Of a DNA stretch of 62,813 bases, positions 16,686-61,540 are shown piece by piece. A model generated the notes under the pieces. The model was not told the DNA's origin, did no database searches, and was given only the letters and a program-made list of their open reading frames with translations. The translations under genes and the position numbers were made by a program. Source of the stretch: Candidatus Nomurabacteria bacterium (lineage in GTDB: Bacteria; Patescibacteriota; Minisyncoccia; Phycocordibacterales; UBA9973); contig CALRHG010000001.1 of NCBI GenBank assembly GCA_943359365.1, forward strand, positions 1 through 62,813, in the 5' to 3' direction. Position 1 is the stretch's first letter, and every line of letters starts with the position of its first letter.

Positions 16686-17267
16686 ATGTCTGATGAAGAA
16701 ATTAAAAAAGAACCTGAAAATATAGCTTCGGAAGAGGAAGTTGTTGAATTCGAATTCAACGAAGACGGCGAGGAGGACTTGAAGAAGACTCTCAAGAAAT
16801 TGCGGGAGGATTTGAAGACGGCTAAAAAGGAGAAGGAAGAATATTTGACCGGCTGGCAGAAAGAGCGGGCGGATTTTGCTAATTACAAAAAAAATGAGGA
16901 GGACAGAAAGGCAATGGTTTCGGAAGCCATGCGCGAGCGGATACTTGCGAAATTTTTAGGAGTTATCGACAGTTTCAACATGGCTTTTGCCAACAAAGAG
17001 TCTTGGGAGAAAGTAGACGAAAATTGGCGGAAGGGTGTGGAATACATTTACGGGCAGATGAATACCATCTTCGAAGAATACGGAGTCAAAGGTGTGGGCG
17101 TTGTCGGCGAACGATTTGATCCGAATATTCACGAGCCGGTGGAAATGGTTGTGACAGACAAAAAAGAACTCGACCACACAGTCGCTAGCGTCATTCAAAA
17201 AGGCTACAAGCTCGGCGAGCGTATTCTGCGTCCGGCGAGGGTGAATGTTTACGAGCTTAAAGAGTAA
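16686..17267 (+). CDS. grpE: nucleotide exchange factor GrpE
   Basis: Acidic N-terminus, coiled-coil region (RERADFANYKK) and a C-terminal FDPNIHEPV...GYKLGERILRPARV. Confidence 0.9.
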   Translation: MSDEEIKKEPENIASEEEVVEFEFNEDGEEDLKKTLKKLREDLKTAKKEKEEYLTGWQKERADFANYKKNEEDRKAMVSEAMRERILAKFLGVIDSFNMAFANKESWEKVDENWRKGVEYIYGQMNTIFEEYGVKGVGVVGERFDPNIHEPVEMVVTDKKELDHTVASVIQKGYKLGERILRPARVNVYELKE

Positions 17268-17273
17268 AAGTCT

Positions 17274-17301
17274 ATTCTAATATTCTATAGAATTATAGAA
17301 T
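17274..17301 (+). promoter_or_regulatory. 28-bp four-hexamer palindrome (promoter/operator), copy 1
   Basis: ATTCTA-AT-ATTCTATAGAAT-TA-TAGAAT. The TAGAAT at 17288-17293 ends 6 nt before ATG 17300. Confidence 0.6.
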
Positions 17302-18976
17302 GAAAAAAGAAACCAAAAATTGTCAGAATTGCAAACAAGACTTCACAATCGAAGCTGAAGATTTCAATTTCTATGAAAAAATAAAAGTACCGGCTCCAAT
17401 CCTATGCTTTAAGTGCCGCCAGCATCGCCGATATGCTTGGCGAAACGAGCGGAATTTGTATCGGAGGAATTGCGATTTGTGCGGGAAGTCCACAGTAACT
17501 ATTTACTCTCCAAATAAGCCTTACAAAGTCTATTGTCACGATTGCTGGTGGGGCGACGGCTGGGATTTTACTTCTTACGGAAGAGATTTTGATTTTTCTA
17601 GACCGTTTTTTGAACAGTTCTCAGAGTTACAACATGAGGTTCCCCGCATGGCTCTATTAAATAAAAATAGCGTAAATTCCGAATACACAAACCACTCCGG
17701 AAATAATAAAAATGTTTATCTTTCTTTCTCCACTTTTGACGGGGAAAACATTATGTACAGTACTTGGATTATGGAAAATTCTCGGGATTGCATGGATTGC
17801 AGTTTTATTTATGAAAAAGGGGAACGTTTATATGAGGTTACTGACTCCCGAACATCCTATCAATGCCAGTACGGCATCTTTCTAAAAGATTGCTCTAATT
17901 GTTTATATTGCTACGATTGCCGCGGCTGCAACAACTGTTTTATGTCGACTAATTTGCGCAATAAAAGTTATGTTTTTAAAAATAAACAATATTCTCGAGA
18001 AGAATATCTAATTAAGATGAAAGAATACGAAATGTCTTCTTTTGCAACCCGGCAAGGCCTAGAAAAAGAATTTCAGGATATGATAGAGCAAAATGCTATC
18101 CATCGTTATGTCATAAGCGAGAGGAATGTGGATTCTCTTGGCAACCTTCTTTATGACTGCAAAAATGTAAAACAATCTTTTGAGGTTACAAGGGTAGAAG
18201 ACAGCAAGTACATATATGGAGCCATCGATGCTAAAAACTGTATGGATCTTTACCATGTGGGGCTAAATACTACTGAACTTTGCTATGAGCTGCAGGGTTG
18301 TACGAGAGTGAGCAACTGTCAATTTTGTCATCTATGTTATGACAACATGAATGTGCAATATTCCGACACCTGCCAAAACAGCCAAAATCTTTTCGGCTGT
18401 GTCTCGGTGAAAAAAGGCGAGTATCTTATTTTCAATAAAAAATATAGCAAAGCCGACTATGAATCTCTGAGGGAAAAAATTATCGAGCACATGAAAAAAA
18501 CAGGGGAGTATGGAGAATTTTTCCCTCCAGAAATCGCGCCGGTGTATTACAACGAGACGCAAGGCAATTTGTATATGCCCCTGACTAAAGAAGAAGTTTT
18601 AGCCAAAGGCTGGCATTGGGAGAATAATGTTCTGGGAACTTTTAGCAGAGAAACTATTTCTGCTGCAAAAATTCCGGACAAAATAGAAGATGTGCCGGAC
18701 TCTTATTTAAGCGAAATCTTTGCCTGCGCAAGCTGCTCCAAAAATTACAATATCACTAAGAATGAGCTATTGTTTTACAAAAAAGAAAATATTTCTCTTC
18801 CGCGAAAGTGCCCCAATTGTCGCTATAAACGCCGTTTCGACCTGCGACCAAAGAGGGAACTATGGCACAGAAAATGCATGAAGGCTGAATGCAAAAATGA
18901 ATTCGAAACTTGCTATCCGCCGGAATTCGCTGGGAAAGTTTACTGCGAGAAGTGTTATAACCAAGAAGTGTACTAA
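17300..18976 (+). CDS. Cys-rich multi-zinc-ribbon protein, family member 1
   Basis: 558-aa ORF. The N-terminal module (CQNCKQDF..FYEKIKVPAPILCFKCR..NCDLCGKS..VYCHDCWW) and the C-terminal module (CASCSKNY..LPRKCPNCR..VYCEKCYNQEVY) are related. The centre is rich in CxxC. Confidence 0.85.
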   Translation: MKKETKNCQNCKQDFTIEAEDFNFYEKIKVPAPILCFKCRQHRRYAWRNERNLYRRNCDLCGKSTVTIYSPNKPYKVYCHDCWWGDGWDFTSYGRDFDFSRPFFEQFSELQHEVPRMALLNKNSVNSEYTNHSGNNKNVYLSFSTFDGENIMYSTWIMENSRDCMDCSFIYEKGERLYEVTDSRTSYQCQYGIFLKDCSNCLYCYDCRGCNNCFMSTNLRNKSYVFKNKQYSREEYLIKMKEYEMSSFATRQGLEKEFQDMIEQNAIHRYVISERNVDSLGNLLYDCKNVKQSFEVTRVEDSKYIYGAIDAKNCMDLYHVGLNTTELCYELQGCTRVSNCQFCHLCYDNMNVQYSDTCQNSQNLFGCVSVKKGEYLIFNKKYSKADYESLREKIIEHMKKTGEYGEFFPPEIAPVYYNETQGNLYMPLTKEEVLAKGWHWENNVLGTFSRETISAAKIPDKIEDVPDSYLSEIFACASCSKNYNITKNELLFYKKENISLPRKCPNCRYKRRFDLRPKRELWHRKCMKAECKNEFETCYPPEFAGKVYCEKCYNQEVY

Positions 18977-18980
18977 GTCT

Positions 18981-19008
18981 ATTCTATAATTCTATAGAAT
19001 ATTAGAAT
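18981..19008 (+). promoter_or_regulatory. 28-bp four-hexamer palindrome, copy 2
   Basis: ATTCTA-TA-ATTCTATAGAAT-AT-TAGAAT. The TAGAAT at 19003-19008 ends 6 nt before ATG 19015. Confidence 0.6.
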
Positions 19009-19014
19009 GAAATT

Positions 19015-20706
19015 ATGAAAACCGAAATAAAAAACTGCCAAAATTGTAAAAAAGATTTCGTAATAGAACCGGACGATTTTGGATTTTACGAAAAAATCAA
19101 AGTACCTCCGCCGACTTGGTGCCCGCAATGCAGAATGCTGCGCCGGTTAAACTGGCAGGGGTACCGCATATTTTACAAAAGAAAATGTGATTTTAGCGGA
19201 GACTCAATTTTGAGTACATATCACCCGGATTCCCCGTACAAAGTCTACCGCCAGGATATATGGTGGAGCGACAAGTGGGATCCGAAAACTTACGGTAGGG
19301 ATATAGATTGGAACAAGCCTTTCTTAGAGCAATTTAGGGAATTAATGATCGAAATTCCGCACGCTTCTTTGGCTACGGAATACTCCACGATGCTTCGCAG
19401 TGACTATTGCAATGCGGCATCGGAATGCAAAGACTGTTATCTTTGTTTTCGCATTACCACAGGAGAGAATAGTGCTTATCTGAACACCGTTGTTGATGCC
19501 AAGCAATGCTTTGATTGTTCCTTTTTAAATCACTCAGAACTTTGTTATAGCTCCGTAAATATCAACAAATGCTACCAAGTATTTTTTTCACAAGACTGCA
19601 CCGAATGCCATGGTGTTTGGTTTTCGCGTGATTTAGTCGGGTGTTCGGATTGCGTAGGCTGTATCAATTTGCGAATGAAACAATACTGCATTTTCAATAA
19701 ACAGTACACAAAAGAAGAATATCAGAAAAAGTTGAAAGAATTTGATTTTGGCATACTGGCAAATGTGCAAGCTTTCAAGCTGCAGGTGGAAGAATTTATG
19801 AAGAAGGAGCCTAGAAAGCATTTTCATGGATTAAAAAATGTAAATGTTTCTGGAGAATATATTTCTAATTCCAAAAATGTACACGATTCGCACATGCTCG
19901 CAAACGGGCTAGATTTGCGTTACTGCCAATTTTTGAAAAACGGGCCTGCGTCTTCTTCGTATGATTGGACGCTGTTTGGTGATAATTCCGAGTTGATGTA
20001 CGAATGCGGCTGGTGCGGACTCGATTCGAGTAGCGTTAAATTCAGCGCGTGGAATTATTTTAATCTCAATATTGAATACTGTTTCGGTTGCCATCATTCT
20101 AGGAATTCGTTCGGCTGTACCAACCTGATAAAATCCGAATATTGTATTTTAAACAAACAATACACCAAAGAGGAATACGAGAAGCTAATTCCAAAAATAA
20201 AGCAGCACATGGTAGATATGCCTTTCAAAGACAACAAGGGAAGAATATATAAATATGGGGAAATGCTGCCGGCAGAATTTTCGCCTTGGTGTTACAACGA
20301 ATCGACAGCTTATGAATGGTTTCCGAAGACTAAAGAGGAAGCGGTTCTTCAGGGTTTGAAATGGCGCGAACAGGATTCTCATGAATACAAAGAGGCGACT
20401 ATGGAAATACCTATCCATATCAAAGATGTCAAAGACGATATTTTAAATGCGATTTTAAGATGCTCAGGTTGCGTAAAAAATTACCAAATTATACAAAAGG
20501 AGCTAGACTTTTTGCGGCAAATGAATTTGCCGATTCCGCGACAGTGCCCTTTGTGCCGAGACCGTGCGCGCCTGAAATTATTGAACCCTATTGCTGTTTA
20601 TGACAGAAAGTGTGCAAAATGTGATAAAGAAATTAAAACTTCGTATGCTCCAGACCGACCAGAAATCGTTTATTGTGAAAAGTGTTATCAACAAGAGGTT
20701 TATTGA
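19015..20706 (+). CDS. Cys-rich multi-zinc-ribbon protein, family member 2
   Basis: 563-aa paralog that ends ..IVYCEKCYQQEVY. The second N-terminal zinc knuckle is degenerate (KCDFSGDS, VYRQDIWW). Confidence 0.85.
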   Translation: MKTEIKNCQNCKKDFVIEPDDFGFYEKIKVPPPTWCPQCRMLRRLNWQGYRIFYKRKCDFSGDSILSTYHPDSPYKVYRQDIWWSDKWDPKTYGRDIDWNKPFLEQFRELMIEIPHASLATEYSTMLRSDYCNAASECKDCYLCFRITTGENSAYLNTVVDAKQCFDCSFLNHSELCYSSVNINKCYQVFFSQDCTECHGVWFSRDLVGCSDCVGCINLRMKQYCIFNKQYTKEEYQKKLKEFDFGILANVQAFKLQVEEFMKKEPRKHFHGLKNVNVSGEYISNSKNVHDSHMLANGLDLRYCQFLKNGPASSSYDWTLFGDNSELMYECGWCGLDSSSVKFSAWNYFNLNIEYCFGCHHSRNSFGCTNLIKSEYCILNKQYTKEEYEKLIPKIKQHMVDMPFKDNKGRIYKYGEMLPAEFSPWCYNESTAYEWFPKTKEEAVLQGLKWREQDSHEYKEATMEIPIHIKDVKDDILNAILRCSGCVKNYQIIQKELDFLRQMNLPIPRQCPLCRDRARLKLLNPIAVYDRKCAKCDKEIKTSYAPDRPEIVYCEKCYQQEVY

Positions 20707-20775: not shown

Positions 20776-21324
20776 TTACTTTCCAAAAGTCTCAAATAAA
20801 AACTTTTTCGTTTCTTCGTCTACGAATTCGGTGACTATGATCATCATCTCGGTGGTGAGACCGAGATCTTTTTTTATATTCGTGAACAGATGTTCAAAAG
20901 GGAAAGGGGAGATCCACGCGGAATTTTTCAGGCAGACGAAACCGGCTTTCTTTAGTAGGTAGCGTAGGCTCTCGCGCTCGCTTTTTCTGTTCTCCGGCAG
21001 ATCGAGCAAAATAATTCTCCAAAATCCGTCCCAAGTGGTGTTTACGAGTGTTGTATCGCTATCTAATTTTAAACTATGTACTTTTTTTCTGCCTTCTTTG
21101 GTCAGGCGGGCGTATTCATTTTGCGGAGAGGAGACATGCTCTATCAATCCTGCTTCTTTGAGGCCTTTTAGAGAGCGAGTTACGGCATATGAATTTTTGC
21201 TCCCCTCCTTGTGGAGGAGGGGGCTGGGGGTGGTGATTTGTTCTTTAATTTCCGGCAAAGAAACAGCACTTTTTTCGCCTAAAATCTTTAAAATTTTGTT
21301 CGAATAGTCTTTCCTGCTTGACAT
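20776..21324 (-). CDS. winged-helix transcriptional regulator, PaaX-like
   Basis: N-terminal wHTH (AVTRSLKGLKEAGLIEH), then WDGFWRIILLDLPENRKSERESLRYLLKKAGFVCLKNSAWISP, which resembles the PaaX middle domain. Confidence 0.55.
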   Translation of the reverse strand: MSSRKDYSNKILKILGEKSAVSLPEIKEQITTPSPLLHKEGSKNSYAVTRSLKGLKEAGLIEHVSSPQNEYARLTKEGRKKVHSLKLDSDTTLVNTTWDGFWRIILLDLPENRKSERESLRYLLKKAGFVCLKNSAWISPFPFEHLFTNIKKDLGLTTEMMIIVTEFVDEETKKFLFETFGK

Positions 21325-21411: not shown

Positions 21412-23331
21412 ATGGCAAAAATTATAGGTATAGACTTGGGTACGACGAATTCGGCGGTAGCTATCATTGAAGGAGGGGTTCCGAAAATTGTGGAAAATAT
21501 CGAGGGCAACCGGACCACTCCTTCGGTGGTGGCGACGGCGAAAAATGGCGACCGTATTGTCGGGCTTTTGGCTCGCAGACAAGCTATTACTAATCCGGAA
21601 AATACTATTGCGGAAATTAAAAGATTCATGGGTCATCGTTTTGATGATCCGGAAGTGCAGAAAGATCGCGGAACAGCGGCATTTAAAATCGAACAGGGCG
21701 ATGGCGGCGGAGTGAAAGTAAAAATGCTGGATAAATTTTATCGACCAGAAGAAGTTTCGGCGATGATTTTGCAGAAAATAAAAGCGGATGTGGAAGCAAA
21801 GCTTGGAGAAAAAATTACTGAGGCTGTCATCACCGTGCCGGCGTACTTCAACGACTCGCAGCGTAAAGCAACCAAGGACGCGGGAGCTATCGCGGGGCTG
21901 GATGTAAAGCGAATCATCAACGAGCCGACAGCAGCTGCGCTTGCCTACGGTTTTGATAAAAAGAAAAATGAAAAAATAGTGGTCTATGACTTCGGCGGGG
22001 GAACTTTCGACGTGTCTGTGCTGGAAATCGGCAGTGATGTTATCGAAGTGAAGTCTATAGATGGAGACAGCCACTTAGGTGGAGGCGACATAGACCGAAT
22101 AATCGTGAAGTGGATTGCAGAGCAATACAAAAAAGAGTCAGGCATAGATGTGACCAAAGACCCGCTCGCGCATCAGAGGCTTCGCGAGGCGGCAGAAAAA
22201 GCCAAGCATGAACTTTCGACGACGATGGAGGCAGAAATAAATATTCCGTTTATCACTTCCGATGCCGGCGGTCCGAAGCATTTGCTCATGAAAATGTCCC
22301 GCGCTACTTTGGAATCTTTGACTAAAGAATTAATTGATCGCTCTATTGAAATTACCAAAAGAGCTCTCGCGGCTTCGCCTTTCAAGATGAACGAAATAAA
22401 TGAAATCATCATGGTCGGCGGGCAGACCAGAATGCCGAGGATTGTGCAGGCAGTAAAGGAACTTTTTGGCAAGGAGCCGAACATGTCCATCAATCCGGAC
22501 GAAGTGGTGGCGCTCGGCGCGGCGGTGCAGGCCGGCGTGCTGGCTGGAGATGTGCGTGATGTTCTCTTGCTCGATGTTATTCCGCTTTCCTTGGGTATTG
22601 AAACTTTGGGAGGCGTTGCGACAAAATTGGTTGAAAGAAATACAACAATTCCTTCCAGTAAGTCGCAGACATTTTCTACCGCGGCTGATAATCAGACTTC
22701 AGTGGAAATTCATATTGTGCAAGGCGAGCGCCCGATGGCTTCGGACAACCGTTCCCTCGGACGATTTATCTTGGATGGCGTTCCGCCAGCTCCTCGCGGT
22801 ATGCCGCAAATTGAAGTTTCCTTCGATGTGGACGCGAACGGCATCTTGAATGTCGCGGCGAAAGATAAGGCTTCCGGCAAATCGCAGTCGATTAAAATAG
22901 AAGCAAGCTCCGGCCTGAAAGACGAAGACATCAAAAAAATGCAGCAGGACGCGGAGCTACATGCGACGGAAGACAAAAAGAAAAAAGAAGGTATAGATAT
23001 TAGAAATACCGCCGAAATGATCATTTACACCGCAGAGAAAGCATTGAAGGATAACGAAGCAAAAATTCCGGCGGAGTTAAAAGAAAGTGTTAATTTGAAA
23101 ATTGCTGCGCTTCGGGGCGCGAAAGATTTGCCAGCCGGTGCGGGTGGCAATGACATAGAAACAATCAAAAAAGCGACGGAAGAGCTTTCTGCTGAAATGT
23201 CTAAAATAGGTGAAGCGATGGCGAAAGCCGGAGCCACGCCCCAATCCCCAAAACCACCGGAAGAACAGCCAGCGGAAGTAAAAGACGCGGAATTCAAAGA
23301 GGGAGATAAGCCAAAGGACGAAACAAAATAA
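21412..23331 (+). CDS. dnaK: molecular chaperone DnaK (Hsp70)
   Basis: [28 protein letters not shown] and a C-terminal substrate-binding domain. Confidence 0.97.
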
Positions 23332-24031: not shown

Positions 24032-26179
24032 ATGGAATTACCCGAAATACCTTTCAATAAAGACCTGACATATATTGGGATTACGACATATCGGGACAAG
24101 AATCAGCTTTTTGGCATCAAGCGCAAAGACAGGCGCCAGCATGTTTACATGCTCGGAAAGTCCGGTACCGGTAAATCCGTGCTGATGTTTAATATGATTA
24201 TCCAGAACATTCGAAACGGCGACGGAGTCTGCATGGTGGACCCGCACGGAGAAAATGTCGAAGCGGTTCTCTCGGCTATTCCACCGGAACGCATCAAGGA
24301 CGTCGTTTATTTCAACCCCGCTGACGCCGAGCACCATATTGGATTCAATGTTCTCGAATTGATCGATCCTCAGTACAAGCATTTGGTGGCGTCCGGCCTC
24401 ATGGGAATTTTCACGAAAATTTGGGCGAACGCTTGGAGCGCCCGCATGGAATATATTTTGAACAATGCAATTCTCGCCCTTCTGGACACTCCGGGCACCA
24501 CACTCCTCGGCATTCCGCGCATGCTTGTGGACAAAGATTATCGCCAGAAAATAATTTCCAATTTGAAAGACCCTGTCATCAAAGCTTTCTGGGTGCACGA
24601 GTATGAAGCTTGGCAGGATAAATTCCGAAACGAAGCCATCGCGCCGATTCAAAACAAAGTCGGGCAGTTTCTCTCTACAAGCATAATTCGAAATGTCGTC
24701 GGCCAGTCGAAGAGCACGATAAATATTTTCGACATGATGAACGACGGCAAGATTTTCTTGGTAAACGTTTCCAAGGGGCGCATCGGCGAAGACAACTCTG
24801 GACTGCTCGGAGGCATGATCATCACTAAAATTCAGCTGGCGGCCATGGAGCGTGTGCGTATTCCGGAAGAACAGCGCCGAGACTTTTATCTTTTCGTCGA
24901 CGAATTCCAAAATTTCGTGACGGACGCTTTTGCTGGCATTCTTTCGGAGGCTCGTAAATACAGATTGAACCTGACGGTGGCGCACCAATATACAGCCCAG
25001 CTGGTGGTGGACAAAAGTTCGGCGGTGCGCGACGCAGTTTTCGGCAACGTGGGCACGACGATAGTTTTCAGAGTTGGCGCCGACGATGCGGAATTTTTGG
25101 AAAGTGAATTCGAGCCGGAATTTACTCCGCTAGACATATTAAACCTGCCAAACTACAAGATTTATATAAAACTAATGATAGACGGCGTGACCTCCCGCCC
25201 TTTTTCCTGTAAAACTTTGCCTCAGCTGGTAAAGTCCGGCGATAAAAAAGTTGAAGATGAAGTTATCCGCTCTTCACGCGCGCTTTATTGCCGGCCGAGG
25301 GAAGTGGTAGAAAGGGAAATCAACGACTGGAGCGGAATGTCTCTCGGTGATGACACCTCGAGCGGATCCGGAGCCCTGGAGAAATTTCCCACAGTATGCT
25401 CGCTCTGTAAAAAAGAAACGACGGTGCCGTTCAAGCCGGAGCCGGGGCGCCCAGTGTACTGTAAAGAATGCATTGCGAAAATAAAATCCGGCGAAGTAAA
25501 AGTTGAAAAGGGAAGAGAAGACCAGATCAAGTACGATGAGTCTACTTTTTTCAAACCATTGGCTGATCTGGGCATAGAATTCGAACGAAAAGATCAAGGC
25601 AAAGATGCGAAAAGCGAAACAGCAAATCGCTTTCCGGAAAGAGTAAATAAGCCTAGTATCGTCGGAGCTATTAAAAAAGTCTTCAAGTCCGCTAAACCAG
25701 CAGGTTCGCTTGGTGGTTTGGTCGTCAAGCCCGCTCCCGCGCCGATTATAGCCAAAGCAAATATCGCTACCCCTCCACCAATTCCGCCAAAAGTAGTTAT
25801 CCCTAAAAAGCCCCCAGCAAAAGACAATATAGCCTTAAGAGAAATTTTAAATGAAACACTGAAAGCCGAGGTAGAAAAGCCTATCCCGGTGCCGGAACCA
25901 AAAAAAGAAATTGTGCCGCCTGTACCCCCAGTAAAAGCGCCGGAGCCGATTTCACTTGATGCTCTCAAAAATAAAATCAAAGAACCTACGCAATCAAAAG
26001 ACCGCGCTGCGAGCCATGAGGACATGAATAAATTGAAGAATTTGATTGCGGAGAAAATCACCACTCCAGCTAAAGCCACTCCTCCTCCAAAAGGAGGGGA
26101 AGAGACTCCTGCGCCAACCCCAGTTCCTAAAAAGCCAAAAGAAGTTCCGGAAGACGTCTTAAGAAAAATTTTAGAGTAA
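24032..26179 (+). CDS. T4CP/TraD-VirD4-like P-loop ATPase with a C-terminal zinc ribbon and a Pro/Lys-rich tail
   Basis: Walker A LGKSGTGKS, Walker B FYLFVDEFQNF, ARKYRLNLTVAHQY. Zinc ribbon CSLCKKETTVPFKPEPGRPVYCKEC (25397-25471). No N-terminal TM segment. Confidence 0.75.
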   Translation: MELPEIPFNKDLTYIGITTYRDKNQLFGIKRKDRRQHVYMLGKSGTGKSVLMFNMIIQNIRNGDGVCMVDPHGENVEAVLSAIPPERIKDVVYFNPADAEHHIGFNVLELIDPQYKHLVASGLMGIFTKIWANAWSARMEYILNNAILALLDTPGTTLLGIPRMLVDKDYRQKIISNLKDPVIKAFWVHEYEAWQDKFRNEAIAPIQNKVGQFLSTSIIRNVVGQSKSTINIFDMMNDGKIFLVNVSKGRIGEDNSGLLGGMIITKIQLAAMERVRIPEEQRRDFYLFVDEFQNFVTDAFAGILSEARKYRLNLTVAHQYTAQLVVDKSSAVRDAVFGNVGTTIVFRVGADDAEFLESEFEPEFTPLDILNLPNYKIYIKLMIDGVTSRPFSCKTLPQLVKSGDKKVEDEVIRSSRALYCRPREVVEREINDWSGMSLGDDTSSGSGALEKFPTVCSLCKKETTVPFKPEPGRPVYCKECIAKIKSGEVKVEKGREDQIKYDESTFFKPLADLGIEFERKDQGKDAKSETANRFPERVNKPSIVGAIKKVFKSAKPAGSLGGLVVKPAPAPIIAKANIATPPPIPPKVVIPKKPPAKDNIALREILNETLKAEVEKPIPVPEPKKEIVPPVPPVKAPEPISLDALKNKIKEPTQSKDRAASHEDMNKLKNLIAEKITTPAKATPPPKGGEETPAPTPVPKKPKEVPEDVLRKILE

Positions 26180-26184
26180 AATCT

Positions 26185-26212
26185 ATTCTAAAATTCTATA
26201 GAATTATAGAAT
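26185..26212 (+). promoter_or_regulatory. 28-bp four-hexamer palindrome, copy 3
   Basis: ATTCTA-AA-ATTCTATAGAAT-TA-TAGAAT. The TAGAAT at 26199-26204 ends 6 nt before ATG 26211. Confidence 0.6.
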
Positions 26213-27998
26213 GAAAAAAGAAACAAAAACAAAAAACTTTTCGTGGCTGGATACGATAAAGGCCTTTTGGTATTTTTTAGATAAAGATAAGCCGAAATTT
26301 ATTTTCGCATTCTTTATTCTTTTGGTAATTTTCTTTTATGATTTTATACCAGTATTTGTTTTAGGAAAAATTTTAGATTTCTTTAATTCGTATAAAGACG
26401 GACAGTCGCTTTCAATTTTTTATTCTTATGTCATTTTTCTAAGCGTTACATACATAATAGCTTCGCTCATTCGATTAAAAAGCAAAAATATTTTAAATAG
26501 AACAGGATTTCATACTCGCACCAGAGCCAGAGTCTGGGGATTTGAGCGGTTGACTGAATTTTCTTTGGAATGGCACAACAAAGAAAATACCGGCAACAAG
26601 CTTCAGAGGATTTTTACCGGCGCGGATGGGGTACGAAATCTGCTCAAGTTGTTCAGCAAGGATTTATTAAAAACCTTTGTCAACATTGCCGGCGCAATCA
26701 TATTTTTTTTATTCACAGATATAAAATTTGTCGCGCTTATTTTGATTTACGGCGCACTCTTTTTCTATATAGAATTTACTTTTAGCAAGAAAGTTTTTGC
26801 TTTCAGCAATGAATTTAATGAGATGAATCAAAAGGCCAGCGGCGCATATATGGAAGGGGCAAGTAACATGCTTTCTATAAAAGCTCTTGGCGGGGAGGAG
26901 GCGATAGCGGGGCGTGTTCTAGATAAAGAAACTCTTTCGCGCGATATTGCAATAAAAAAGACAAATGCTACTAATTTAAAATGGCGCTTTTTTCAGATTT
27001 TAAACGGCGTCAGTCTAGGAATTTTCCTTCTTTTACTTGGTTCCTCAGTAATTTCTCACACAATAACTCTCGGAATGATGCTTGTACTGTATAGTTACTA
27101 TAATGATAAATTCCGAAAGTCACTGGAAGAGATTACTGATTTGCATTCTGATATGATAGATTTTCGGTCAGATATTAGCCAGATGATGCCCATATTCAAA
27201 GAAACTGAATTCATAAAAACAGGCAACGAAAGTTTCCCGAAAGACTGGAACAAGATTGAAATAAAAAATGCGGTGATGGATTATGGCTCAGGGCAAAAAG
27301 GCCTCAATAATTTTAATTTAATACTAAACAGAAATACTAAGACAGGTATTGCCGGAATATCCGGTTCGGGCAAATCCACGCTCGCAAAAATTATCTTGGG
27401 ATTGTATGCGCTCAAGGAAGGAGAATTTAAAATAGGGAAAGAAAATAATATGAAGAATTATTATTCAATTTCTCATAATGAAACGCTAGGCAATATTACA
27501 GTCGTTCTGCAAGAGACGGAGCTTTTCAATCTTTCTTTGCGGGAAAATATTACGATGATGCGTCCCGAAAATAAAGACCTTTTAGATATGGCAGTAAAAA
27601 TTTCTGAACTAGATAAAGTAATTAATAAACTTCCCGAAGGCCTTGACGCTCTGATAGGCGAAAAAGGATATATGCTTTCCGGCGGCGAACGCCAGCGCCT
27701 TGGGATTGCCCGCGCGATTTACAAAAATGCGCCGATTATTATTTTAGATGAAGCGACTTCCTCGCTTGATTCGGAGACTGAAGGCAAAATAATGGAGAAG
27801 CTCCTGGGCGAATACGGCAAAGATAAAACTTTCTTAATTATCGCCCACCGCTTGGGAACTTTGAAGTATACTGACAATATCGCCGTGATGGAGAGAGGAC
27901 AAGCGGTCGAAGAGGGAAGCTACGAAACGCTGATGAACGATAAAAAATCAGTTTTTTATAGATTAAATAAAGAAAAGAAAAATGAATCAAGAATGTAA
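26211..27998 (+). CDS. ABC exporter, fused permease/ATPase
   Basis: Six-helix TMD, Walker A GISGSGKST, signature LSGGERQRLGIARA, Walker B IIILDEATSSLD. Confidence 0.9.
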   Translation: MKKETKTKNFSWLDTIKAFWYFLDKDKPKFIFAFFILLVIFFYDFIPVFVLGKILDFFNSYKDGQSLSIFYSYVIFLSVTYIIASLIRLKSKNILNRTGFHTRTRARVWGFERLTEFSLEWHNKENTGNKLQRIFTGADGVRNLLKLFSKDLLKTFVNIAGAIIFFLFTDIKFVALILIYGALFFYIEFTFSKKVFAFSNEFNEMNQKASGAYMEGASNMLSIKALGGEEAIAGRVLDKETLSRDIAIKKTNATNLKWRFFQILNGVSLGIFLLLLGSSVISHTITLGMMLVLYSYYNDKFRKSLEEITDLHSDMIDFRSDISQMMPIFKETEFIKTGNESFPKDWNKIEIKNAVMDYGSGQKGLNNFNLILNRNTKTGIAGISGSGKSTLAKIILGLYALKEGEFKIGKENNMKNYYSISHNETLGNITVVLQETELFNLSLRENITMMRPENKDLLDMAVKISELDKVINKLPEGLDALIGEKGYMLSGGERQRLGIARAIYKNAPIIILDEATSSLDSETEGKIMEKLLGEYGKDKTFLIIAHRLGTLKYTDNIAVMERGQAVEEGSYETLMNDKKSVFYRLNKEKKNESRM

Positions 27999-29643
27999 AA
28001 AATGCAAACAGGGTTTCACTTTAGATAAAGACGATCTAGGTTTTTACGAAAAGATGAAAGTTCCGCCGCCCAAAGTCTGCCCGGATTGTCGCTTTAAAAT
28101 GCGCGCGATGTTTCGCAATGAAACGACGCTTTATTCCGGGCGCAAATGCGCTCTTTGTGAAAAGAGTATTGTTTCCATGTTCAACCCCAAAGCCCCTTAC
28201 ACTGTTTATTGTTACGATTGTTTTTATTCTGAAAAATGGGATCCGAAAGAATATGCTATGGATTATGACGAAAACAGACCTTTTTTAGAACAATTTGGCG
28301 AGTTATTAAAAAAGGTTCCTAAGATCACATTGTATCTCAACGCGGCGGACGGAAAAAATTTAAATAGTGAATATGTAAATATGGCTGGCGGTCTGAAAAA
28401 TTGCTATCTGGTTTTTAATACAAGCCCATCGGAAGATTTGTTATATTCGAGAGGCGTCAGGCACGGAAAAGATGCTTCGGATATATATTTCGGTACCCAT
28501 CTTGAGCGGTGCTACGAATGCGTAAATGTGCAACAGTCCGCAGGGATACTTTTTGGCAAGAATGTCACCGGCTCAGTGGATTCAGCTTTTCTTGTGAATT
28601 GCCGGGGCGTAATAAATTGTTTCGGTTGCGTTAACTTAAACACCAAGTCGTATTATTTTTTAAATCAGCCGATACCGCCGGACGAGTACAAGAAAAAAGT
28701 GAACGAAATTCTGGGGTCTTACGAAAAAATTCAGGAATTCAAAAAAGAATTTGAAAAATTTGTTCTTAATTTTCCGATGCGGGAGAACAACAACCTCAAG
28801 ACTGTCAACTCAACCGGGGATTATCTGTTTGAATGCAAGAATGTCAAGGATTCTTTTGAAGTTACAGGAGCGGAAGATTGCCGTTATCTTTTTTCTTCAA
28901 AAGAGGCCAAAGATTCTATTGGCACCATAGGTTATGGCACAAAGTCGGAGCGAATGCTCGAAGTAGTGGCTACCGGCCTTTCGAGTAATATTATAGGCAC
29001 ATACGGTGCGGAAAATTGCAGCGATATTTTGTACGGATTTTTTATCAAAAATTGCAAGAGTTGCATTGCTTGCGACGGGCTAAAGAATGCGCAATATTAT
29101 ATTTTTAACAAACAATATACAAAAGAAGAGTACGAAAGACTGCGCGCAAAAATTATCGAAGAGTTAAAAGAAAAAGACTTATACGGATTGATCATCCCGG
29201 TAGAGCTTGCCCCTTTTGCTTACAATGAAACTATTGCAGAGGACAGGTTTCCACTTGCGAAAGAAGAAGCGCTAGCACAAGGTTTTCGCTGGGAAGATGA
29301 TATACAAAAGACGGAAGGAAAGGAGACAATGACACCGGAAAATATTCCGGATAATATAAAAGATATTCAGGATTCGATTACCAGCGAAATTTTAAGGTGT
29401 ATAGATTGCAATAGGAATTATAAAATAATCGCTCAGGAACTTTTATTTTACCGCAAAATGAATATTCCAATACCGCGAAAATGTTTCTATTGCCGTCACC
29501 AAGACCGTATCCTCCGCCGAGGGCCGTATAAATTCTGGAATCGCAATTGCGCGAAGTGCAAAAAGGAGATTATAACCAATTATTCCCCAGATAGAATGGA
29601 GATCGTGTATTGTGAGAAATGTTATCAGCAGGAGGTTTATTAA
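27982..29643 (+). CDS. Cys-rich multi-zinc-ribbon protein, family member 3
   Basis: 553-aa paralog that ends ..IVYCEKCYQQEVY. It overlaps the end of the ABC gene by 17 nt. Confidence 0.85.
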   Translation: MNQECKKCKQGFTLDKDDLGFYEKMKVPPPKVCPDCRFKMRAMFRNETTLYSGRKCALCEKSIVSMFNPKAPYTVYCYDCFYSEKWDPKEYAMDYDENRPFLEQFGELLKKVPKITLYLNAADGKNLNSEYVNMAGGLKNCYLVFNTSPSEDLLYSRGVRHGKDASDIYFGTHLERCYECVNVQQSAGILFGKNVTGSVDSAFLVNCRGVINCFGCVNLNTKSYYFLNQPIPPDEYKKKVNEILGSYEKIQEFKKEFEKFVLNFPMRENNNLKTVNSTGDYLFECKNVKDSFEVTGAEDCRYLFSSKEAKDSIGTIGYGTKSERMLEVVATGLSSNIIGTYGAENCSDILYGFFIKNCKSCIACDGLKNAQYYIFNKQYTKEEYERLRAKIIEELKEKDLYGLIIPVELAPFAYNETIAEDRFPLAKEEALAQGFRWEDDIQKTEGKETMTPENIPDNIKDIQDSITSEILRCIDCNRNYKIIAQELLFYRKMNIPIPRKCFYCRHQDRILRRGPYKFWNRNCAKCKKEIITNYSPDRMEIVYCEKCYQQEVY

Positions 29644-30402: not shown

Positions 30403-31896
30403 ATGCCCAAGCCGAATCGAGTGCAAATAATCAAATACGGGCCTCCACCTCCGGAACTCCCGGTTTTTGGAAAGGTTAAACCGGAGGAAGTTTCTTTTAT
30501 CGGGCGGACGAATTACGTTGCTTCTCTCGAAGAAAAAAAATTCATTTTCGGCATCAAGCGCGTAGACCGCAGGCGCCACCTGTATATCATCGGAAAGTCC
30601 GGAGTCGGCAAGACAAAGCTTCTAGAATTGATGCTCCGACAAGATATTTCATACAAACACGGACTCTGTCTAATTGATCCGCACGGCGATGTCATCGAAG
30701 CGATGCTGGAATACATTCCAAAAGAGCGCATCGAAGATGTCTGTATTATTGACCCTACCGATCTTGATTTTCCGGCATCTTTCAATCCGCTCTCCAACGT
30801 CGACCCATTATTTAAATTCCAACTAACTCAGGGTCTCATCGAAGTTTTTCAAAAACAATTCGGAGCGAACTGGACGCCCCGCCTCGAACACGTCTTTCGT
30901 TTTACTTGTCTAGCGCTTCTCGACTATCCGCATGCGACCATGCGCGGCATGATCTCGATGCTGACAGACAGAAATTACAGGCAGAAAGTAGTGGAATACA
31001 TTACGGACGACATGGTGAAAAGATTCTTTGCAATCGAATTCGCTGACTGGTCGGAGAAATTCGACACCGACGCCATCATTCCGCTCGTCAACAAACTCGG
31101 GCAATTTCTCTCTGACCCGCTCTTAAGAAATATTTTCGGTCAGAAGCAAAACAAGATTGATATTAGCAAGCTCATGAACGAACAGAAAATTATTCTGATT
31201 AATCTTTCAAAGGGTCGCCTCGGCGAAGAAAATTCTTCATTCTTGGGGTCCATATTTCTCACGAAGATCAAGCAGGCGGGCATGGAGCGCGCCGCCATGC
31301 CGGAGTCAGCGCGAAAGGATTTCTATATATATGTCGACGAGTTCCAAAACGTAGTGACGCAGACTTTCGAAAACATTTTGTCGGAGGCGCGAAAATACGG
31401 TCTTAACCTCACCATGGCGCACCAATATGTCGGGCAGATTATTACCAAAGTGCATCAAGCGGTGCTCGGTAACTGCGGTAGTATTATTACCTTCCGTATC
31501 GGCGGTGAGGATGCGGTGAAATTAAAGCCGGAATTCGCTCCACTCTTCGATGTGAAAGATATGATTAACCTCGCGGTCACCGAATTTTATATCAAGATGA
31601 CGATTGACGGCGAATCTTACGATCCGTTTTCCGCCGAGACGCTCCGCGTGCTTCCGCCGAATCATCCTTCGTACCGACAAGAAATTATCGACGCTTCGCA
31701 CCGAAAATATTCCATACCAAAAGGCGACGCGCAGAAACTTATTCTCGAAGAAGAAGCGACGATTATCCGCAGTTCAGAAGAAAAAGCTATTATTGAAGGG
31801 AAGGGAAAGGGAAAAACCGGAGACGAAACAACTCCGACGCCCGAGGGGTCGGAGTCCCGACCAAAAGCGTCGGGAGAAGCTGAGCCGATGATCTAA
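30403..31896 (+). CDS. T4CP/TraD-VirD4-like P-loop ATPase, paralog 2
   Basis: Walker A IGKSGVGKT, Walker B FYIYVDEFQNV, ARKYGLNLTMAHQY. Collinear with 24032-26179 and has no TM segment. Confidence 0.75.
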   Translation: MPKPNRVQIIKYGPPPPELPVFGKVKPEEVSFIGRTNYVASLEEKKFIFGIKRVDRRRHLYIIGKSGVGKTKLLELMLRQDISYKHGLCLIDPHGDVIEAMLEYIPKERIEDVCIIDPTDLDFPASFNPLSNVDPLFKFQLTQGLIEVFQKQFGANWTPRLEHVFRFTCLALLDYPHATMRGMISMLTDRNYRQKVVEYITDDMVKRFFAIEFADWSEKFDTDAIIPLVNKLGQFLSDPLLRNIFGQKQNKIDISKLMNEQKIILINLSKGRLGEENSSFLGSIFLTKIKQAGMERAAMPESARKDFYIYVDEFQNVVTQTFENILSEARKYGLNLTMAHQYVGQIITKVHQAVLGNCGSIITFRIGGEDAVKLKPEFAPLFDVKDMINLAVTEFYIKMTIDGESYDPFSAETLRVLPPNHPSYRQEIIDASHRKYSIPKGDAQKLILEEEATIIRSSEEKAIIEGKGKGKTGDETTPTPEGSESRPKASGEAEPMI

Positions 31897-31936: not shown

Positions 31937-33031
31937 ATGAGCAAAGATTACTACGAAACATTAGGAGTAAATAAAGGCGCGTCAAAAGACGAGATAAAGA
32001 AGGCTTTTTACAAGTTGGCGCACAAGTATCACCCTGACAAAAAAGAAGGCGATGAGAAGAAATTCAAGCAGGTAAACGAGGCCTATCAGGTGCTTTCAGA
32101 CGACTCTAAACGCTCAAAATATGACCAATTTGGGTCGGGTTTTGAAAACATGGGGGCTGGCGGAGGCTACGGTCAGCAGCAAGGAGGCTTTGGCGGATTC
32201 GACTTTTCTGGCTTTCAGAATGGCGGCGGTGCGGAGTTTGATTTTGGAAACTTAAATGATATTTTCAGTGATTTCTTCGGCGGCGGGGGAGGAGGCAGAA
32301 GGGAAGCACGCCGAGGCCGAGACATTTCGACAGAGATTTCCATTTCTTTCTCAGATTCCATTTTCGGTATAAATAGAAAAATTTTAATTACTAAAACTTC
32401 TAGCTGTATGACTTGCCATGGCTCCGGCGCGAAAGCGGGAACAAAAATGGAGACTTGCAAGACCTGCAACGGGCAGGGCAAAATCCGCGAATCCAAAAGA
32501 ACAATTTTTGGAAATATTGCGAGCACAAAAGTCTGCGAACACTGCCTCGGCGCGGGCGAAGTGCCGAAAGAAATTTGCGACACATGCAAAGGCAAGGGCG
32601 TAATGCGCCGAGAGGAAGAAGTCTCCATAGTCATTCCAGCTGGTATACGCGACGGCGAAATGATCCGCATGACAGGCTTTGGTGAAGCGGTGTCCAAGGG
32701 CACTACGGGGGACTTATATATAAAAATAAATGTGGCTCCGCATCCGGTTTTCAAGCGCGATGGGCATGACCTGGTGATGAATTTGAATTTGAAACTTTCT
32801 GATGCACTTCTCGGCACGGAATATCCGATAGAGACTCTTGACGGACAAATTGAAGTGACGATTCCGGAAGGCGTGGGCATAAATGAAATTCTCCGTGTAC
32901 GCGGCAAGGGCGTTCCAGTTTCTAAATCTAAACGCGGCGATCTTCTGATCAAACTCAACATCAAACTTCCATCAAAACTTTCTCGAAAATCACGCGAAAT
33001 AATAGAAGAACTCAAAAAAGAGGGGATATAA
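31937..33031 (+). CDS. dnaJ: molecular chaperone DnaJ
   Basis: J-domain with HPD (KYHPDKK), a G/F-rich region and four CxxCxGxG repeats. Confidence 0.95.
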
Positions 33032-61512: not shown

Positions 61513-61540
61513 ATTCTACAATTCTATAGAATTATAGAAT
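61513..61540 (+). promoter_or_regulatory. 28-bp four-hexamer palindrome, copy 4
   Basis: ATTCTA-CA-ATTCTATAGAAT-TA-TAGAAT. The TAGAAT at 61535-61540 ends 8 nt before ATG 61549. Confidence 0.6.

Follow-up and report, generated by a model that had tools for sequence, protein, structure and literature searches.

An unnamed family of Cys-rich proteins of Patescibacteria with paired treble-clef fingers around a solenoid-like core, often encoded near VirD4/TrwB-like ATPases

INTRODUCTION

Several described systems resemble parts of the protein family considered here. The LIM domain is a tandem double-finger module serving protein-protein interaction. Chaperones with zinc centres exist as well: Hsp33 and, through its Cys-rich domain, DnaJ. 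Among repeat folds, the left-handed beta-helix (hexapeptide-repeat) proteins, such as GlmU, LpxD and gamma-carbonic anhydrase, have an 18-residue coil of three hexapeptides, with short stacked strands every ∼6 residues; the beetle antifreeze protein TmAFP is a Cys-rich beta-helix with a 12-residue coil and a very narrow core.

The closest sequence relatives, zf_Tbcl (PF13451) and zf_Tbcl_2 (PF23477)/TIGR04272, are fingers of ∼40 residues, with no established function for either zf_Tbcl or zf_Tbcl_2; zinc binding was shown experimentally for small proteins of M. mazei of the CxxC-x17-CxxC type (PMC12704099). A VirD4/TrwB coupling protein operates with recruited substrates or accessory proteins. 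Orphan T4CPs are a recognized puzzle in Patescibacteria, where T4CP genes are mostly distant from virB4 (PMC12102498).

We analyzed a window of 62 813 nt, the whole stretch taken from a Candidatus Nomurabacteria contig, in which an initial annotation made from the sequence had described a family of Cys-rich proteins.

RESULTS

Four paralogs with a common architecture

An ORF check found four paralogs of one unnamed family, all on the + strand and at the coordinates reported initially:

17300..18976, + strand: FAM1, 558 aa, 35 Cys; complete architecture, with zinc-finger pairs N- and C-terminal to two solenoid halves and the acidic mid segment after them
19015..20706, + strand: FAM2, 563 aa; second N-terminal finger degenerate, 3/4 ligands gone
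27982..29643, + strand: FAM3, 553 aa, 28 Cys; own ortholog group, 64-83% identity
61549..62813, + strand: FAM4, first 421 aa, the rest beyond the window end; scpA-scpB upstream

FAM1 is 39-45% identical to the other three copies, and the family proteins of the window contain 28-35 Cys each. The proposal of a four-copy family with one architecture was borne out, and all motifs quoted for it were found: those of the N- and C-terminal modules; the linker, as (R/K)PF(F/L)(E/T)QFxEL; the ...NKQY(S/T)KEEY endings of both halves; FPxExAPxxYNET; and the near-identical last 12 residues, VYCEKCY(N/Q)QEVY. Neither a TM segment nor a signal peptide is present in the family proteins, as had been claimed (the highest hydropathy over 19 residues is 1.23). 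These are cytoplasmic proteins of ∼555 aa, unnamed and with an unmatched core fold. Within FAM1 the parts are as follows:

17300..17599, + strand: N-terminal module of two treble-clef fingers, aa 1-100; C8/C11/C36/C39 in finger 1, C58/C61/C79/C82 in finger 2; net charge +5
17654..17995, + strand: solenoid-like half 1, aa 119-232; 12-residue repeats; ends in FMSTNLRNKSYVFKNKQYSREEY; C213 near-invariant
18110..18451, + strand: solenoid-like half 2, aa 271-384, with near-invariant C367; homologous to half 1
18512..18709, + strand: acidic mid segment, aa 405-470; YGEFFPxExAPxxYNET and G..W motifs; pI 4.7; pLDDT >90
18710..18973, + strand: C-terminal module of two treble-clef fingers, aa 471-558; C476/C479/C504/C507 and C526/C531/C549/C552 as ligands; net charge +8

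The mid segment is strongly conserved as well as acidic; the core is neutral in charge.

Terminal zinc-finger modules

Two treble-clef zinc fingers make up each end of the protein, Cx2C-x24-Cx2C followed by Cx2C-x17-Cx2C, the first of zf_Tbcl type and the second of CxxC-x17-CxxC type; with a pair at both termini, four Zn sites are predicted per protein (three in FAM2). The two modules had been described as the same kind of unit, and profile comparison agreed (hhalign probability 99.8, E 6.6e-29, 153-sequence alignment); a control comparison of the N-terminal module with half 1 in the same alignment showed no similarity. The zf_Tbcl pattern, CxxC...F-x-[IF]...FY-x-K...P-x-x-C-x-x-CR, occurs at both ends. 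The spacing C58-x2-C61-x17-C79-x2-C82 is present in FAM1, FAM3 and FAM4, the N-terminal equivalent in FAM2 being degenerate; the C-terminal finger has 17 residues between its second and third ligands in each of the three complete copies, with the first pair of FAM1 being Cx4C.

Across 80 diverse family members, PF23477 was matched by 48 and PF13451 by 35 at E <= 0.01. The window copies scored below the cut-offs: 21.3-24.0 bits against PF23477 (Pfam cut-off 27), 16.6-18.8 bits against TIGR04272 (NCBIfam cut-off 36) and 13.5-18.8 bits against PF13451 (cut-off 24). Judged by these profiles, the family fingers appear to be divergent relatives of PF23477/TIGR04272, individually sub-threshold. Each terminal module reads as a tandem of the two finger types; the ∼370-residue core has no counterpart in zf_Tbcl, zf_Tbcl_2 or TIGR04272, which are fingers alone.

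The C-terminal module also gave weak profile matches to LIM proteins (PDB 2dar, E 1.8e-3; Pfam LIM, E 0.03). Membership in the LIM domain (PF00412) was rejected at 14.9 bits versus a cut-off of 22.9. Under the LIM pattern applied, Cx2C-x16-23-Hx2C-x2-Cx2C-x16-21-Cx2(C/H/D), the inter-finger spacer has 2 residues versus ∼18 in the family, whose ligands are all Cys, with no His or Asp. The resemblance is best taken as an analogy, not as membership.

In FAM2 three ligands of the second N-terminal finger are replaced (C61S, C79R, C82I). The loss was noticed correctly in the initial annotation; its reading as ongoing divergence was not upheld, as ∼50% of 153 family representatives are without those ligands. 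Loss of this finger is an old subfamily trait, not recent decay.

A duplicated core of 12-residue repeats

That the two Cys-dense halves are an internal duplication is statistically solid (half 1 versus half 2 in the 153-sequence alignment: hhalign probability 99.9, E 6.4e-37). The repeat unit was initially put at ∼20 residues, which is wrong; profile autocorrelation peaks at lags 3, 6, 9, 12 and 24, giving a sub-repeat of 12 residues with a Cys register of 3. Only C213 and C367 are near-invariant (93-95% of 153 representatives); the other core Cys are 20-88% conserved and alternate with Ser, Val and Leu, so that most are not conserved ligands. Four register Cys (207/210/213/216), 79-93% conserved, fall in a single coil of half 1; FAM1, FAM2 and FAM3 each miss one of them, and half 2 has no equivalent set.

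Two AlphaFold runs reached pTM of 0.85 and 0.90, with moderate confidence for the core halves (pLDDT ∼70-80). The predicted secondary structure has short strands at ∼6-residue intervals, the sequence period being 12, and the models render both halves as putative narrow solenoid-like stacks of 12-residue repeats; 'solenoid' is based here on the strings of predicted secondary structure, on the periodicity and on the character of the weak Foldseek matches. A beta-solenoid-like core flanked by zinc fingers, as first suggested, agrees with both the models and the periodicity. The best Foldseek matches were all beta-helix proteins, none significant (E >= 0.16, TM <= 0.2, rmsd > 10 A). The core had no match in PDB, Pfam, NCBIfam or PADLOC; Pfam and NCBIfam profile searches returned sub-threshold treble-clef matches at the ends and nothing recurrent in the core, in line with the initial statement that no named family spans the protein. 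FAM1, FAM2 and FAM3 had no match in PADLOC-DB, and known anti-phage defence proteins were rejected as an assignment.

Hexapeptide-repeat proteins were the top Foldseek matches of the better model, and short stacked strands every ∼6 residues are common to both; however, their coil has 18 residues and the strongest family period is 12. Assignment to the PF00132-type left-handed beta-helix was rejected: a Hexapep Pfam match, the [LIV]-G-x-x-[STAV]-x signature and an acyltransferase context are all absent, and the Foldseek superposition was non-significant. TmAFP shares with the family a 12-residue coil, regularly spaced Cys and small residues packing a narrow core; however, the family is without the TCT ice-binding motif, no Foldseek or Pfam match links the two, and disulfides are unlikely in cytoplasmic proteins of anaerobes. 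The resemblance is convergence at most.

Distribution and conservation

The family is confined to Patescibacteria/CPR, with at least 552 loci in species genomes and >2000 clusters at 50% identity, and is essentially absent from viral contigs. Its genes form tandem arrays of up to 9 copies. Orthologs of FAM1 are 72-80% identical, versus 71-89% for rplQ, rplM, rpsI and grpE of the same loci. Each paralog has its own ortholog group, under housekeeping-level constraint like that of ribosomal proteins; the statement that the copies are diverging had misread an old subfamily trait. Between paralogs, identity is 0.46-0.49 in the finger modules and mid segment and 0.31-0.32 in the halves; within ortholog groups it is 0.57-0.84 across all domains. 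Paralogs are alike at the ends and most different in the solenoid halves.

Gene neighborhood

16686..17267, + strand: grpE, directly upstream of FAM1
21412..23331, + strand: dnaK
24032..26179, + strand: VirD4a, soluble P-loop ATPase of T4CP/TrwB-like type; carries a CxxC-x17-CxxC finger of its own (PF23477, 47.7 bits) and a tail rich in Pro and Lys
26211..27998, + strand: ABC exporter, fused TMD-NBD; shares 17 nt at its 3′ end with the start of FAM3
30403..31896, + strand: VirD4b, soluble T4CP/TrwB-like ATPase without the finger
31937..33031, + strand: dnaJ, directly following VirD4b; codes for a J domain, a CXXCXGXG domain and a C-terminal domain

The recurrent neighbor over deep CPR lineages is a VirD4/TrwB-like ATPase, overlooked initially and more persistent than the exporter. 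Of 80 family loci, 21 had a T4CP-like ATPase adjacent on the same strand, with Peregrini-, Peri-, Gracili- and Abawacabacteria represented among them; the other 59 had no T4CP gene within 8 kb. The ATPase most often adjoining family arrays across CPR belongs to the VirD4b subclade. In the reverse test, ∼17 of 28 VirD4b-type loci had a family gene within 7 kb, many at 7-70 bp, versus 0 of 52 more distant T4CP-like loci; the adjacency is subclade-specific. The VirD4a finger aligns to the second knuckle of the family module, and a finger of this type is fused to 31 of 123 T4CP-like ORFs. This shared finger is a small, promiscuous domain, which counts against the ATPase link. The T4CP-like proteins of the window have no TM segments and no membrane anchor, and no virB-type gene is among the annotated window genes.

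The local order is grpE, FAM1, FAM2, (PaaX-like), dnaK ... FAM3 ... VirD4b, dnaJ; that is, in this lineage family genes are embedded within the grpE-dnaK-dnaJ cluster, on which the initial annotation was silent. The adjacency of grpE to a family gene is retained in ∼11 loci, the ends often overlapping or abutting. Linkage to Hsp70 genes is restricted to Paceibacteria-type relatives; arrays of deep lineages have no dnaK, dnaJ or grpE nearby. A DnaJ-type zinc-finger co-chaperone was rejected as an identity for the family (no DnaJ or DnaJ_CXXCXGXG match, zero CxxCxGxG motifs); the sole 'HPD', in FAM2, sits in the degenerate finger, and the genuine DnaJ is the product of 31937-33031.

With the 17-nt overlap, the ABC exporter and FAM3 are presumably one operon. 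The linkage to an exporter that had been stressed proved weak: it recurs in only ∼4-5 related loci, at variable position. The placement of FAM4 downstream of scpA-scpB is retained in five other loci. Neighbors of the family also include rpoA and ribosomal protein genes besides scpA-scpB, and PemK toxin, NYN, ORF6N and Bro-N genes lie scattered among the arrays of Peri-, Gracili- and Abawacabacteria.

A 26-bp palindrome and a candidate regulator

17275..17300, no strand: palindrome copy 1; ends on the A of the FAM1 start codon, TAGAAT at -12..-7
18982..19007, no strand: copy 2, exact reverse complement of copy 1
26186..26211, no strand: copy 3, 1 mismatch; ends on the A of the start codon of the ABC gene
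61514..61539, no strand: copy 4, 2 mismatches; FAM4 start 10 nt downstream
20776..21324, - strand: PaaX-like regulator of winged-helix type (PaaX_M, E 1.8e-19); gene convergent with the FAM1-FAM2 pair

The private regulatory element reported for the family is real: the palindrome TTCTA-ATA-TTCTA/TAGAA-TTA-TAGAA has four sites in the window versus none expected by shuffling, all at starts of family transcription units. It overlaps the likely -10 box and start codon; copy 2 is followed by a 3-codon mini-ORF (19007-19018, MKL*) overlapping the FAM2 start. The exact palindrome was found solely in close relatives, and the upstream region of dnaK is without it. A PaaX-like gene occupies the equivalent position in ∼11 related loci, and we infer its product to be a candidate binder of the palindrome.

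DISCUSSION

We tentatively propose that the paralogs are paralog-specific adaptors or clients of the VirD4b-type ATPase, a possible though doubtful reading. The conserved terminal fingers and mid segment would provide common docking elements, and the paralog-specific solenoid faces would be recognition surfaces; shared docking combined with specific recognition is what suggests a set of adaptors (or clients). The partner would be the soluble VirD4b-type T4CP-like hexameric ATPase encoded alongside, and in Paceibacteria-type lineages the adaptor-ATPase system may work with the interleaved Hsp70 (GrpE-DnaK-DnaJ) genes. A dedicated winged-helix regulator, PaaX-like here and TrmB-like in other lineages, would bind the palindrome and probably repress the family genes. 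The association is drawn from gene adjacency, and the gene order of close relatives may be inherited rather than selected. A likeness to VirD4/TrwB systems lies in the family adjoining a T4CP-like ATPase in distant CPR lineages and in the conserved termini common to paralogs; however, the ATPase has no membrane anchor here, no relaxase, toxin or secretion signal is evident, and conservation of the family is housekeeping-like.

One could also read the basic terminal finger pairs (net +5 and +8) as binding DNA or RNA, with the solenoid core as spacer or scaffold, for a role in handling the chromosome, in transcription/translation or in processing imported DNA. This reading fits the genes around the family (rpoA, ribosomal protein genes and scpA-scpB among them), the nature of T4CP/TrwB-type ATPases as DNA translocases, and the part in nucleic-acid processes often proposed for treble-clef and CxxC-x17-CxxC fingers (PMC4999995; PMC12704099). 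However, no recognized DNA- or RNA-binding domain was detected, the mid segment is acidic and the core neutral, half of the members are missing an N-terminal finger, and the housekeeping neighborhood may reflect inherited gene order; we consider this role rather unlikely. The interleaving with grpE, dnaK and dnaJ, the grpE junction kept in ∼11 loci with overlapping or abutting ends and the precedent of zinc-centre chaperones would fit zinc-dependent holdases or DnaK-system co-factors inserted in the cluster. That linkage, however, is limited to Paceibacteria-type relatives, the deep-lineage arrays being without these genes; the family has its own operator, absent upstream of dnaK, and neither a J domain nor the CXXCXGXG motif, which makes a proteostasis role unlikely.

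It is still less probable that the proteins are exported, as substrates or effectors that the T4CP-like ATPase or the ABC exporter would recruit and deliver to the cell exterior or into a host. The adjacent ATPases, translational coupling to an exporter with the same operator and a highly conserved C-terminus common to paralogs, loosely recalling the T4CP-binding domains of effector families, point that way; against it are conservation at the level of ribosomal proteins, atypical of host-directed effectors, four predicted structural zinc sites in a compact, confident fold, T4CP-like proteins without TM segments, patescibacterial T4CP genes mostly far from virB4 (PMC12102498), an ABC link in few loci and the absence of a signal peptide. 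Tandem arrays of up to nine paralogs, the PemK, NYN, ORF6N and Bro-N genes among them and weak mad8/HerA matches of the ATPases in PADLOC recall a conflict or defence module, with arrays of paralogous sensors and a HerA/T4CP-like ATPase. Those matches, however, are generic P-loop similarity, the family itself has no PADLOC match, and strong purifying selection, stable ortholog groups, a location among core housekeeping genes and near-absence from viral contigs leave such a module very improbable. Finally, the 28-35 Cys of each protein with their strict 3-residue register, the 207/210/213/216 coil with its 79-93% conservation and an exporter co-regulated through the same palindrome might suggest a metal or thiol buffer, in which the Cys-lined solenoid binds further metal ions or Fe-S clusters and the exporter handles the ligand; but with most core Cys 20-80% conserved and swapping with Ser, Val and Leu, each of FAM1, FAM2 and FAM3 short of one Cys in that coil, and no equivalent set in half 2, we hold this to be extremely improbable.

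Returning to the adaptor proposal, its widest form would cast the family as the partners so far missing for the orphan VirD4-type ATPases, which abound in Patescibacteria and are unlinked to type IV secretion genes. Together they might form a previously unknown cytoplasmic ATP-driven machine, in which interchangeable four-zinc-finger solenoid paralogs select different clients (proteins or nucleic acids), wired into Hsp70 in some lineages, and the core would be a new repeat fold; the chance that all this holds is fairly low. The family itself is large, widespread in CPR and not previously described, and the window, from a bacterium with a tiny genome, has four copies of it.

Domain architecture and terminal fingers

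Four paralogs of an unnamed family of ~555-aa proteins, FAM1 to FAM4, lie where the initial annotation had placed them, all on the plus strand.

Family members in the window
17300-18976, +, FAM1, 558 aa
19015-20706, +, FAM2, 563 aa
27982-29643, +, FAM3, 553 aa
61549 to window end, +, FAM4, 421 aa visible

The copies can be aligned over their whole length, the others being 39-45% identical to FAM1; every motif quoted in that annotation was found in them, as was the near-identical ending of 12 residues (VYCEKCY(N/Q)QEVY in all three complete copies). We also agree that there is no signal peptide or TM segment: the 19-residue Kyte-Doolittle maximum, 1.23, is under TM-like level, and polar N-termini lead directly into finger 1. 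A family-wide alignment was made of 150 representatives (50% identity clusters) and the window copies. The N- and C-terminal modules, earlier described as units of the same kind, are indeed homologous (N-terminal 100 versus C-terminal 90 residues: hhalign probability 99.8%, E 6.6e-29), and so are the Cys-rich halves, residues 115-240 and 270-392 (probability 99.9%, E 6.4e-37); a control comparison of the N module with half 1, by hhalign in the same alignment, gave no similarity.

Each terminal module is made of two predicted fingers, Cx2C-x24-Cx2C and Cx2C-x17-Cx2C, the first with the pattern F-x-I-x3-D-x2-FYEK-x2-VP-x-P-x2-CP-x-CR. The Pfam counterparts of these types are zf_Tbcl (PF13451) and zf_Tbcl_2 (PF23477; NCBIfam TIGR04272). 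Scores of the window copies against all three models were under the curated cut-offs; among 80 diverse members, matches at E <= 0.01 were seen for PF23477 in 48 and for PF13451 in 35. The family's fingers are thus divergent, individually sub-threshold members of known, functionally uncharacterised finger families. VirD4a, a gene for a soluble ATPase of the type IV coupling protein (T4CP) kind in the same window (24032-26179, +), carries an above-threshold PF23477 finger which aligns with the family's second knuckle. Small CxxC-x17-CxxC proteins of M. mazei bind zinc by ICP-MS (PMC12704099); by analogy, we infer that the four predicted fingers would bind zinc too. A full-length profile found among solved structures only weak LIM-like matches, on the C module; the double-finger module resembles LIM by analogy only.

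Over 153 representatives (FAM1 numbering), ligands of the outermost fingers are retained: C8, C11, C36 and C39 in at least 92%, C526, C531, C549 and C552 in 96-97%. Ligands of the inner fingers are frequently absent, C61, C79 and C82 being kept in 50% and C479, C504 and C507 in 69-76%. The degenerate finger reported for FAM2 is real; however, since inner-finger ligands are so often lost (C61, C79 and C82 at 50% family-wide), it is by these frequencies an old subfamily trait rather than recent decay.

Repeat core and predicted fold

The core had been described as built from ~20-residue units. Profile autocorrelation of both halves peaks at lags 3, 6, 9, 12 and 24, and core Cys are concentrated in one phase of three (frequency 0.26 versus 0.04-0.06); the repeat is therefore 12 residues long, not ~20. 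Tyr/Phe and Asn/Asp each appear once per unit, a ladder pattern typical of beta-solenoids.

Near-invariance among core Cys is limited to C213 and C367 (93-95% of the 153 representatives), which lie at equivalent positions of the motif FGC-x-(N/G)L-(R/K)-x-K-x-Y-C-I-x-NKQYSKEEY; the others are 20-88% conserved and replaced by Ser, Val or Leu. Because of this poor conservation an Fe-S or metallothionein-like core was judged unlikely. At the end of half 1, Cys 207/210/213/216 form a CxxCxxCxxC register on one 12-residue coil (window 17918-17947, FAM1 residues 207-216); these are 79-93% conserved family-wide, with one of the four absent from each of FAM1, FAM2 and FAM3, and may form an extra metal site.

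AlphaFold gave pTM 0.85 and mean pLDDT 82.9 with 98 sequences, and pTM 0.90 and mean pLDDT 87.9 with 80 more diverse ones (five of five models at least 84.7). Termini and mid segment exceed pLDDT 90; the halves stay at ~70-80, with short strands about every 6 residues. Foldseek, run twice on PDB and once on BFVD, found no neighbour at E <= 0.001, and the half-domain profile alone had zero matches in PDB and Pfam. The best Foldseek matches of the better model were all left-handed beta-helix proteins (E >= 0.16, TM <= 0.2, rmsd > 10 Å). Taken together, the string of secondary structure, the 12-residue period and the kind of fold these weak matches have point to halves that would form narrow solenoid-like stacks. 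The core is like beta-helix repeats in local geometry, yet every membership test run left it outside them.

Both terminal modules are basic, with net charges of +5 and +8; residues 385-470 are acidic (pI 4.7), and the halves neutral. A DNA mimic, considered by analogy with pentapeptide repeats, was rejected: at pI 6.9-7.9 the halves lack the charge for it, and they repeat every 12 rather than every 5 residues.

Distribution, copy number and constraint

Searches of Pfam, NCBIfam and PADLOC with all copies, 80 diverse members and the isolated half-domain returned sub-threshold finger matches only, so assignment to a named family was dropped. No source examined had a name for the exact window proteins, relatives found by word-index searches are almost all labelled 'hypothetical protein', and no paper describing the family was found in the literature searched. 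Although zinc fingers and solenoid repeats are familiar as building principles, we place the family, undescribed and with an unmatched core, outside known kinds.

Relatives are numerous: more than 5,000 in each of two word-index searches, and 5,242 representative clusters at E <= 1e-3 (2,197 at E <= 1e-30) in an exhaustive profile search, whose best 150 clusters were all full length (527-612 aa). At least 552 loci in GTDB species genomes encode relatives. All 80 loci inspected belong to Patescibacteria/CPR (Nomura-, Paceibacterota, Staskawicz-, Lipton-, Sungii-, Peregrini-, Peri-, Gracili- and Abawacabacteria, Minisyncoccia), and we regard the family as CPR-specific. One locus labelled Burkholderiales (L060, JAMPXW010000002.1) has CPR-like neighbours and four family genes, with VirD4b, dnaJ and rsmE arranged as in CPR; mis-binning of a CPR contig is the probable reason. 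Phage origin was rejected, as 2.9 M viral contigs yielded one marginal fragment and the family is essentially absent there.

The genes form tandem arrays, all copies on the same strand. Per locus (up to 18 kb) there is one copy in 29 loci, two in 23, three in 14, four in 6, five in 3, six in 2, seven in 1 and nine in 3. FAM1 and FAM3 each have their own ortholog group (64-83% identity), and constraint is strong: across syntenic genomes FAM1 is 72-80% identical, versus 71-89% for the flanking rplQ, rplM, rpsI and grpE. Between paralog groups the halves diverge most (0.31-0.32, with 0.46-0.49 for finger modules and mid segment); within groups conservation is similar across all domains. Common ends with specialised, constrained cores suggest subfunctionalised paralogs that would dock to something common.

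T4CP-like ATPases and the gene neighbourhood

The window reads rpoA-rplQ-rplM-rpsI-grpE, FAM1, FAM2, a PaaX-like winged-helix regulator gene (20776-21324, minus), dnaK, two small ORFs, VirD4a, an ABC exporter gene overlapping FAM3, rsmE (minus), VirD4b (a second T4CP-like ATPase gene, 30403-31896, +) and dnaJ; farther along, scpA-scpB precede FAM4.

A soluble T4CP-like ATPase recurs beside the family, at 21 of 80 loci, mostly directly adjacent and on the same strand, including Peregrini- (L025), Abawaca- (L044), Peri- (L065) and Gracilibacteria (L068). In the reverse test, metagenome contigs were searched starting from the T4CP-like profile. ATPases at least 50% identical to VirD4b had a family gene within 7 kb at ~17 of 28 loci, many gaps being 7-70 bp; more distant T4CP-like ATPases had a family neighbour at none of 52. 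A general T4CP linkage was accordingly replaced by a subclade-specific one; within the subclade of VirD4b the link is real. These ATPases lack a TM segment, their nearest solved structure is TrwB (E 3e-5), and in 31 of 123 the protein includes a fused finger of the type found in the family. Immediately before VirD4a, which itself has no TM segment, comes a 96-aa ORF (23665-23955) with two hydrophobic stretches; its product could be a membrane anchor split off from the ATPase. A 2025 survey of 2,918 Patescibacteria genomes counted 5,713 VirD4-type T4CP homologues, only 148 of them near virB4, and raised possible exaptation (PMC12102498).

In the window's lineage the family is embedded in the Hsp70 cluster. 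The order grpE, family, PaaX-like/dnaK recurs at ~11 of 80 loci, only in closer relatives, and scpA-scpB followed by the family at 5 of 80. With a complete dnaJ (31937-33031) right after VirD4b and rsmE nearby, grpE-dnaK-dnaJ-rsmE looks like an ancestral cluster into which T4CP-like and family genes were inserted. VirD4b adjoins dnaJ also at L048, L049, L055, L060 and L061; at L078 a dnaJ homologue adjoins a dnaK-like ORF, with no T4CP-like gene. The exporter linkage proposed initially is weak: a similar ABC exporter is found at only ~4-5 of 80 loci, and its position varies. Arrays of deep lineages (L044, L065, L068 and L070; Abawaca-, Peri- and Gracilibacteria) are flanked by TrmB-type regulators and interspersed with small ORF6N, Bro-N, PemK/MazF-toxin and NYN genes.

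A dedicated putative operator

Family transcription units of the window begin with a 26-bp palindrome, TTCTA-N3-TTCTA followed directly by TAGAA-N3-TAGAA, present at four window sites with 0-2 mismatches; none is expected by shuffling.

Sites of the 26-bp element
17275-17300, start of FAM1
18982-19007, inverted, start of FAM2
26186-26211, start of the ABC-FAM3 unit
61514-61539, start of FAM4

The element ends on the A of the start codon at both FAM1 and the ABC gene, which puts TAGAAT at -12 to -7; this would fit leaderless transcription, with the putative operator lying over the -10 box. Leaderless starts were dismissed as a family speciality: an SD-like motif precedes only 6 of 57 window genes (long ORFs), and in many a TATAAT-like box stands 6-12 nt ahead of the ATG, which suggests leaderless or very short-leader mRNAs genome-wide. 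The last base of the FAM2 operator starts a 3-codon mini-ORF (ATG AAA TTA TGA, 19007-19018) whose stop codon shares bases with the start codon of FAM2 (19015); this mini-ORF, perhaps leaderless, may serve to couple translation into FAM2.

Related loci totalling 1.9 Mb contain 6 occurrences of the element, of which 4 precede family genes by 0-19 nt. The equivalent position is taken in other lineages by different palindromes or by TAGAA repeats. Tandem copies within a locus are often near-identical upstream and differ between lineages (L008, L016, L019, L028, L065), examples being the CCTACA repeats of L065 and the GTGGTGAAT...ATTCACCAC palindrome of L028; different lineages may thus control one family through operators of their own. 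The PaaX-like gene beside FAM1-FAM2 is an obvious candidate repressor. A heat-shock regulon was rejected, the palindrome being missing upstream of dnaK and the window's other genes. A lone half-element (TTCTATAATTCTA) is found at 7040-7052, away from any family gene, in or close to the ORF at 6750-7952. The coding region of rsmE (minus strand) contains, at 29806-29846, an inverted repeat whose stem has 18 pairs (GCCCGACAAAAATGCTGA...TTAGCATTTTTGTCGGGC).

Possible roles of the family

Tentatively, we see the paralogs as adaptors or clients of the soluble T4CP-like ATPase. The conserved fingers and mid segment would be the docking parts, and the solenoid faces would provide specificity surfaces. 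Nucleic-acid binding, for which one could point to the basic terminal modules, appears a somewhat poorer candidate; the halves themselves are neutral. A proteostasis factor linked to Hsp70 is unlikely, the grpE-dnaK context being that of closer relatives and the family's palindrome being missing upstream of dnaK.

One could also speculate that the proteins are exported substrates, an ABC exporter being encoded next to FAM3; we hold this improbable, with such exporters at few loci and the proteins having no signal peptide. Slighter still are the chances of a defence module: the deep-lineage arrays do contain toxin genes, but PADLOC gave no match for FAM1, FAM2 or FAM3. A metal or thiol buffer, which the Cys-rich halves might bring to mind, is the most doubtful, as core Cys are so poorly conserved.

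The family offers a testable lead on what thousands of T4CP/VirD4 homologues away from virB4 do in these bacteria, which recent literature has asked. Patescibacteria/CPR account for a large part of bacterial diversity, and their tiny genomes are full of unannotated genes; four to nine family genes of ~1.7 kb each occupy ~1% of such a genome. Constraint is at ribosomal-protein level and more than 500 loci were seen in the scanned species-representative genomes, yet the family has been without a name, a core Pfam model or a structural relative. It offers a new repeat fold to structural study, and its putative operator and candidate regulator make a clean system in which to examine how genes are controlled, of which almost nothing is known in these organisms.
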